A DNA stretch of 64,000 bases from Escherichia coli (GTDB lineage: Bacteria > Pseudomonadota > Gammaproteobacteria > Enterobacterales > Enterobacteriaceae). Below, piece after piece: positions 57,912 to 58,439 of this stretch (positions are counted from its first letter, which is position 1; the number at the start of each line of letters is the position of its first letter). The stretch is from NCBI RefSeq assembly GCF_048403405.1, contig NZ_CP183129.1. One strand, given 5' to 3'. The position numbers and the translations under genes were made by a program. The notes below the pieces were generated by a model that was given only the letters and a program-made list of their open reading frames with translations, had not been told where the DNA came from and made no database searches.

Positions 57912-58439
57912 ATGATACTTTGGTCTGTGAAAAAAGAAACCGATATCCGGCGTGGAAGGCATTGTGTTTTCCTGATGCATGTTCACCTGGTCTTTGTCAC
58001 CAAATACCGACGTCAGATTTTTGACCATGACGCGACAGAAAAACTACGCACTTACTTTTCAAAGGTATGTGCTGATTTTGAAGCTGAACTGGTTGAAATG
58101 GATGGCGAACCAGATCACGTCAATTTGTTAATTAACTATCCTCCCAAACTGGCGATATCCAGTCTGGTAAACAGCCTCAAAGGCGTATCGGGTAGGTTAC
58201 TGCGACGAGATCGACCAGATATTGCCGTCAGGTATTACTACAAAGGCGTTTTGTGGAGTCCTGGCTATTTTGCCAGTAGCTGCGGAGGTGCGCCAATATC
58301 CGTCATCCGCCAATACATTGAACAACAGCAAACACCTGGTCAGGTGGAAAACCGCGCCTTATATCCCCGCCCTGAAGGACGGGGTTTTACGGCGCACCGG
58401 ATAAAGAAACAGTCAAAATCACTCAGCAAAACAGGCTGA
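57912..58439 (+). CDS. tnpA: IS200-type Y1 (HuH) transposase TnpA; HuH motif reads H-V-N
   Basis: 175-aa table ORF (true start may be internal ATG at 57975); TKYRRQIF, DHVNLLI and GGAPISVIRQYIEQQ align to IS200/IS608 TnpA from memory; last ~13 codons lie beyond the inferred IS end. Confidence 0.8.
   Translation: MILWSVKKETDIRRGRHCVFLMHVHLVFVTKYRRQIFDHDATEKLRTYFSKVCADFEAELVEMDGEPDHVNLLINYPPKLAISSLVNSLKGVSGRLLRRDRPDIAVRYYYKGVLWSPGYFASSCGGAPISVIRQYIEQQQTPGQVENRALYPRPEGRGFTAHRIKKQSKSLSKTG
58365..58384. repeat. left-end subterminal imperfect palindrome of the IS
   Basis: CCCCGCCC-tgaa-GGACGGGG; differs from the right-end copy at two stem positions. Confidence 0.75.

Follow-up and report, generated by a model that had tools for sequence, protein, structure and literature searches.

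What becomes of a Y1 transposase when one of the two histidines that hold its catalytic metal has been replaced by asparagine? The catalytic Mg2+ or Mn2+ of HuH Y1 transposases is held by two histidines and a glutamine near the nucleophilic tyrosine. In the 64,000-nucleotide stretch of DNA that we analyzed (hereafter the window), a segment of an Escherichia coli chromosome carrying nrdR, yajI, tsx, yajD, secF and secD, the tnpA ORF (175 aa, a Y1/HuH transposase; 57912–58439, plus strand) encodes H69-V70-N71 (58116–58124, plus strand), with Asn in place of the second metal-ligand His. Either the family accepts such a motif, or the substitution marks an element that is losing the ability to move. 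We favor the second answer and give a probability of about 0.8 to the reading that this is a vertically inherited, decaying and stranded copy of IS609 at yajI, in which TnpA has been impaired by H71N while TnpB has been kept open.

An IS609 copy in yajI and the HuH motif of its transposase

The element that carries this tnpA is a whole IS609 of the IS200/IS605 family (1748 bp; 56653–58400, minus strand), with its left end at 58400 and its right end (...GATGTCAA) at 56653; the canonical IS609 orientation corresponds to the minus strand of the window. The same element carries the PGAP name IS609 in other strains, the window copy shares 98.2–99.5% nucleotide identity across 1748 bp with eight IS609 copies (those of O157:H7 and K-12 included), and five complete genomes, TUM14771 and MS 69-1 among them, match the region 56600–58450 at 100% identity. 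The insertion splits the lipoprotein gene yajI into a 5′ fragment (56523–56652, plus strand) and a 3′ fragment (58401–58810, plus strand). Between the two halves lie the divergent genes tnpB (insQ; minus strand) and tnpA (plus strand), a classical IS200/IS605 architecture with genes divergent. Their start codons stand 7 nt apart (tnpB GTG at 57904, minus strand; tnpA ATG at 57912, plus strand), so each promoter must sit within the coding sequence of the other gene. The insertion is present in about 344 of 5424 complete E. coli genomes, from which it follows that yajI is dispensable in those lineages, and for the source strain it implies a stable disruption of yajI.

Comparison with the empty site set the boundaries of the element. 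The uninterrupted yajI sequence runs from ...CAACTCA directly into ATAAAGAAACAG..., whereas the occupied site runs from ...CAACTCA into TTGACATCC...CACCGG and only then into ATAAAGAAACAG. Read on the minus strand, the order is TTTAT, element, TGAGTT, which places IS609 directly 3′ of the host pentanucleotide TTTAT (58401–58405, minus strand; ATAAA on the plus strand). This pentanucleotide abuts the left end on its 5′ side and serves as the insertion target and presumably as the TAM; it is also found ahead of the left end at ydcO and ytfA, making three loci in all. Since TTTAT is single in the empty yajI allele, there was no target duplication. Both ends contain a subterminal hairpin, CCCCGTCC-TTCA-GGGCGGGG on the left (58365–58384, minus strand; z = −3.0 for the ssDNA fold against shuffled controls) and CCACGTCC-TTCA-GGGCGTGG on the right (56663–56682, minus strand; z = −3.9 by the same comparison). 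The two hairpins are near-identical to each other, and in the alignment of IS609 copies the window copy has zero private changes at either end.

Within the transposase, the motif stands as the first-pass annotation had described it: the codons CAC GTC AAT are in frame in the ORF, whose translation around the motif reads ...EMDGEPDHVNLLINYPP... The Pfam Y1_Tnp model (PF01797) matches TnpA at E = 3.4e-40 over model positions 1–121 of 121, and solved TnpA structures in the PDB match it at E = 1e-16 to 9e-20 (phmmer). In ungapped phmmer alignments, the window segment pdHvNll stands opposite pdHiHlf of the Sulfolobus proteins (2f4f, 2ec2) and kdHiHil of IS608 TnpA (2a6m/2vhg). These alignments to four solved TnpAs equate N71 with IS608 H66 and H69 with IS608 H64, bearing out the earlier placement of N71 on the second His of the IS608/IS200 HuH segment. 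The catalytic tyrosine region, which had also been reported as present, is there too: the segment RQYIEQQ is kept, and within it catalytic Tyr135 (58314–58316) and metal-site Gln139 (58326–58328) form an intact Y-x3-Q motif of subclass 1.1 (58314–58328, plus strand) that corresponds to IS608 Y127 and Q131. The window protein thus has the whole-domain homology and the Y-x3-Q motif of its family and only one of the two HuH histidines; to judge from its sequence, it is a homologue by descent, yet an incomplete catalytic member of the Y1 HuH transposases. We also considered compensation by an extra histidine in strand 1 (M-H23-V-H25-L) and rejected it because H23 is not specific to the window copy, being common whatever the HuH state (75 of 111 at that column).

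The mechanistic reference for Y1 HuH enzymes is the IS608 TnpA of Helicobacter pylori (PDB 2a6m/2a6o/2vhg), which aligns with the window protein across the fold (E = 3e-19). Besides the shared residues H64/Y127/Q131 (H69/Y135/Q139 in the window), the two elements have in common their subterminal hairpins and the right-end cleavage sequence TCAA. The window element differs in the Asn at the H66 equivalent, in the divergent arrangement of tnpA and tnpB, which are co-directional in IS608, and in its target, TTTAT; that of IS608 is TTAC. Both HuH histidines and Q131 hold a divalent metal beside Y127 in the metal site of IS608 TnpA (PMC6006769), and mutation of H64, H66 or Y127 is described as inactivating this enzyme (PMC3597680), in a statement that gives no replacement residue for H66. 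By homology to IS608, the most probable effect of N71 is to abolish or greatly lower ssDNA cleavage at the element ends.

The second HuH residue in homologues and the N71 allele

The suggestion that this family tolerates H-u-N did not survive comparison with its homologues. We found His at the second HuH position in all 120 of the closest homologue clusters, drawn from E. coli, Salmonella, Proteus, Photorhabdus, Yersinia and others. The motif reads D-H-V-H in 115 of them, D-Y-V-H in two and D-Q-V-H in one, and two of the five clusters missed by the motif pattern were read directly as D-H-V-H. In a more diverse set (exhaustive search, 50% identity cluster representatives), His occupies the position in 131 of the 146 sequences that cover the column. 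The residues found in its place (R, Y, Q, P, C, L, S, N) are scattered, are mostly one-nucleotide neighbors of a His codon and often occur in representatives that show other defects too, a pattern that fits decayed copies, not a variant subfamily. An Asn or Gln subfamily at this position was sought among the 120 close and 146 diverse homologues, and none was found; nor did we see the substitute kept throughout any lineage of active homologues, as it is in a natural HUQ- or HUN-type variant. The reference copies likewise lack H-V-N: the five H-allele E. coli copies that we fetched all read CAT, the annotated-intact IS609 of O157:H7 included.

At the nucleotide level, AAT is separated from CAT by a single C-to-A change at 58122, the one-nucleotide step that had been pointed out from the codon alone. 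In the nine-copy alignment, A is found at this position in the window, TUM1226, SC418 and VCSW7 and C in the remaining five copies. A tnpA 61-mer with AAT (window 58092–58152) has exact matches in 9 of 5426 complete E. coli genomes, with one copy each, and the exact 175-aa TnpA is recorded on 112 public contigs, which makes N71 a real, circulating allele; in these comparisons it is derived and rare. An error of sequencing or assembly, or else a family-wide alternative motif, has only the single-base nature of the change in its favor. With the same 61-mer in 9 complete genomes that were assembled independently, the exact protein on those 112 contigs and H-V-H as the family motif, a sequencing artefact is excluded and we regard this explanation as a whole as vanishingly improbable.

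The N71 allele occurs at two old insertion sites, ytfA (in VCSW7) and yajI. Its local background falls into two or more haplotypes, told apart by positions 58013, 58064 and 58226 (compared over window 58003–58226). One of these haplotypes is common to VCSW7 at ytfA and SC418 at yajI. Such a distribution over haplotypes and loci points either to gene conversion among IS609 copies or to a C-to-A mutation that arose more than once. Separately, in about 1016 E. coli records the 61-mer departs from the H-allele version at a single other base; many of these records come from single-copy genomes, ST131 and APEC strains among them.

These data also bear on the idea that H-V-N is an attenuated yet functional site, in which the amide oxygen of Asn serves as a metal ligand and the element still moves occasionally. 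There are precedents for an amide at a HUH metal site: natural HUQ motifs are active, the Gln of the circovirus Rep motif ligating Mn2+ (PMC9973303) and HUQ being conserved in Replitrons (PMC10288648), and Asn119 takes the role of third ligand in E. coli TnpA-REP, as a residue of the metal site itself (PMC6006769). The remainder of the window tnpA is free of nonsense and frameshift changes and keeps the ancestral K31, and the presence of the N allele at two different loci also counts in its favor. The resemblance to the HUQ Reps of circoviruses and Replitrons, where an amide residue likewise replaces the second His of motif II, has its limits, however: in those proteins the Gln is conserved family-wide and ligates Mn2+, whereas the window Asn is a rare derived allele in an otherwise His-invariant family. 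Neither Asn nor Gln is fixed in any lineage of the Y1_Tnp neighborhood, and the side chain of Asn is one methylene shorter than that of Gln or His. Genomes with the N allele have a single N copy apiece, with no sign of proliferation, and the N-bearing ytfA site is an old orthologous insertion, not a new one. Together with the neutral evolution of tnpA described below and the inactivation of IS608 TnpA by H66 mutation (PMC3597680), these points make an attenuated but working enzyme quite unlikely, and we retain the reading of an impaired TnpA.

tnpA decay across E. coli and transposase supply in trans

The closest annotated-intact relative allowed us to list the changes in the window copy. The O157:H7 IS609 beside ytfB (TnpA WP_000604943.1, 143 aa) is 98.8% identical to it at the nucleotide level across 1748 bp and shares the divergent tnpA/tnpB, the end hairpins, the TTTAT target and the TCAA right-end terminus. 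The window copy departs from it by H71N, by CAG in place of the TAG stop, by K31 vs R31 and by its site in yajI vs ytfA. The ancestral tnpA stop, TAG in the O157:H7 copy, has become CAG at 58341–58343 in the window, and relatives terminate at ...QQQTPG. With this stop lost, the tnpA ORF runs through the left-end hairpin into yajI. PGAP calls the window tnpA a pseudogene because the stop is missing, not because of N71.

Read-through forms of tnpA are found at many sites (ydcO, ytfA, yedK, yfaV, beside a chbF-like gene and beside dsdA), as judged from the differing C-terminal tails of database proteins. The read-through form may have been compatible with transposition, or may have been spread by gene conversion. 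Position 31 varies as well: Lys31 (58002–58004, in the conserved T-K-Y-R-R) is kept in the window copy, as in relatives from other genera, and Arg31 is present in four of the nine copies (ST2747, O157:H7, K-12 and CFSAN061763) and in several database proteins.

N71 is one of several lesions carried by this gene. Orthologous yajI copies have other lesions in its place, L96* (TGA) in ST2747 and Y76* (TAA) in TUM1886; L96* also occurs in the K-12 ydcO copy and the CFSAN061763 ytfA copy, and the VCSW7 ytfA copy combines N71 with a frameshift in tnpA and two stops in tnpB. Across the nine IS609 copies compared, tnpA is intact in one and tnpB open in eight. The ratio pN/pS, calculated by the Nei-Gojobori method on a small sample of eight E. 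coli copies, is 0.94 for tnpA and 0.30 for tnpB, the tnpA value resting on few substitutions (summed pairwise differences of 34 synonymous and 108 nonsynonymous). Counted as distinct changes, tnpA has 13 nonsynonymous and 3 synonymous, and tnpB has 33 and 25, in keeping with the contrast in pN/pS. By these measures tnpA evolves neutrally and tnpB is under purifying selection. For comparison, K-12 IS609 gave zero new insertions in a large mutation-accumulation study (PMC5009759).

The contrast between the two genes could also be read as selection for the loss of TnpA, which would stop excision and TnpB breaks at the donor joint, with TnpB kept for a function at the host level or for its own selfish retention. 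Several observations speak for this view: E. coli copies carry four or more independent tnpA lesions (N71, Y76*, L96* and a frameshift) against a high proportion of open tnpB copies, the tnpB ratio is 0.30, and one exact TnpB occurs beside both N71 and truncated tnpA alleles at yajI. A tnpA ratio of about 1, however, is what neutral decay alone predicts and makes selection unnecessary. The constraint on tnpB may go back to a period of TnpA activity, few copies were sampled, and in VCSW7 tnpB is broken too. We consider selected loss very unlikely, and neutral decay of tnpA in a stranded element remains our preferred account.

Whether a second IS609 copy could supply transposase in trans depends on the other tnpA in the genome, as each window-type genome has only two tnpA places. 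A second copy was sought in NZ_CP128875.1 (TUM14771) at five known IS609 sites taken from read-through protein tails, ydcO-ydcL, ytfA-ytfB, yedK, yfaV-yfaY and chbF, and all five were empty. We characterized the second copy by a differential query composed of three window-specific 95-mers as anchors and one test 95-mer, with an E-value passed by perfect 95-mers only. In six window-type genomes, the test 95-mer with CAT (H71) and TTA (L96) gave one place, and that with CAT and TGA (L96*) gave two. From this difference, the second copy has H71 and terminates prematurely at codon 96, before the catalytic Tyr is reached. With N71 in one copy and L96* in the other, this is a lineage without an intact IS609 TnpA. 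The exact TnpB protein was also sought for a second genomic context, and only the yajI context was returned. At 618368–618826, NZ_CP128875.1 carries an intact tnpA of the IS200C family, a different and unrelated Y1 transposase.

TnpB, its putative guide RNA and the state of the element

The claim that an impaired TnpA stands beside an intact TnpB holds on its second part as far as the coding sequence goes. The tnpB gene (insQ; 56696–57904, minus strand) is uninterrupted and encodes a full-length protein of 402 aa that matches ISDra2 TnpB (8bf8) at E = 1e-54. The catalytic residues are kept, with the RuvC D-E-D triad aligned (D183/E267/D363 equivalent to D191/E278/D361 of ISDra2 TnpB), and the zinc-finger cysteines CxxC...CxxC are present (CACCGH, CQVCG). 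Against the nine-copy consensus, window TnpB has one difference, C19R, which is common to three other copies, and the identical protein is encoded at yajI next to N71 and next to the truncated tnpA with its 95-residue product. The first part of the claim, the impairment, is consistent with the loss of activity on mutation of H66 in IS608 TnpA (PMC3597680); the ‘immobilised’ element and the ‘active nuclease’ are inferences.

A presumed omega-RNA region (56640–56823, minus strand) takes in the tnpB 3′ end, the right end and, as putative guide, the adjoining yajI flank (TGAGTTGCGTCATCTC...). Rfam matches on the correct (minus) strand over 56640–56823 were all below the gathering score: HgcC (RF00062) at 23.8 bits, sot0042 (RF02656) at 17 bits and RAGATH-18 (RF03064) at 28.1 bits. 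The three stack where an omega RNA would be expected. HgcC and sot0042 overlap the 3′ ends of tnpB. By analogy with characterized TnpB systems, the TAM TTTAT and the guide flank TGAGTTGCGTCATCTC would together specify the uninterrupted yajI allele (PMC8612924; PMC10055086). A search of the literature on InsQ function returned nothing relevant.

These observations can be arranged into a plausible sequence of events. A single C-to-A transversion at 58122 turned the second HuH His into Asn (H71N, the equivalent of IS608 H66) in a tnpA that has also already lost its stop codon. Loss of one metal-ligand His would then most likely block or severely lower single-strand cleavage at the ends. With the other IS609 tnpA truncated by L96*, the element has no transposase source of its own and, its cis-acting hairpins intact, is most likely stranded at yajI. 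If expressed with a guide RNA derived from the right end, TnpB would be programmed against TTTAT plus uninterrupted yajI, that is, the empty allele, on the model of the ISDra2 and ISGst mechanism. This is how autonomous elements of the IS605 type usually become non-autonomous ones that retain TnpB only.

Non-autonomous IS605-type elements composed of tnpB and an omega RNA have been described (Meers et al., PMC10055086; Karvelis et al., PMC8612924), and about 75% of tnpB genes are without a nearby tnpA (PMC10055086). The window element resembles them in its intact RuvC D-E-D TnpB, its conserved ends and its lack of a working tnpA in cis. Unlike them, it still has a nearly full-length tnpA, presumably inactivated by missense and not deleted, and the window genome, unlike those cases, is apparently without a trans-acting IS609 TnpA. 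IS609 is a described insertion sequence, and the stranded, non-autonomous state with a possibly active TnpB is common and already described; the window case is ordinary mobile-element decay, with no novelty of kind.

A more unusual outcome, in which tnpB is kept for a transposition-independent role in a genome without live TnpA or in which H-V-N is a live attenuated site, seems unlikely to us. Were a transposition-independent TnpB role to hold, the nuclease may destroy incoming uninterrupted yajI alleles and thereby guard the insertion against recombinational replacement, or it may represent a first step to host domestication.

As ordinary decay, the locus is one more example of the stepwise loss of tnpA with tnpB persisting, and a single orthologous insertion shows three alternative lesions. 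The case further illustrates that a domain search can pass a catalytically compromised tnpA ORF, so ‘autonomous’ calls for IS605-type elements should include a check of the HuH and Tyr residues. The natural His-to-Asn allele is, in addition, usable as a probe of metal-ligand tolerance in Y1 transposases. Finally, we observed an inverse IS609 remnant at the yedK locus (metagenome contig, 4664–5540), in which tnpB is cut to an 89-aa N-terminal fragment and a read-through H-V-H tnpA is kept; the protein cluster of this remnant has about 1000 members.
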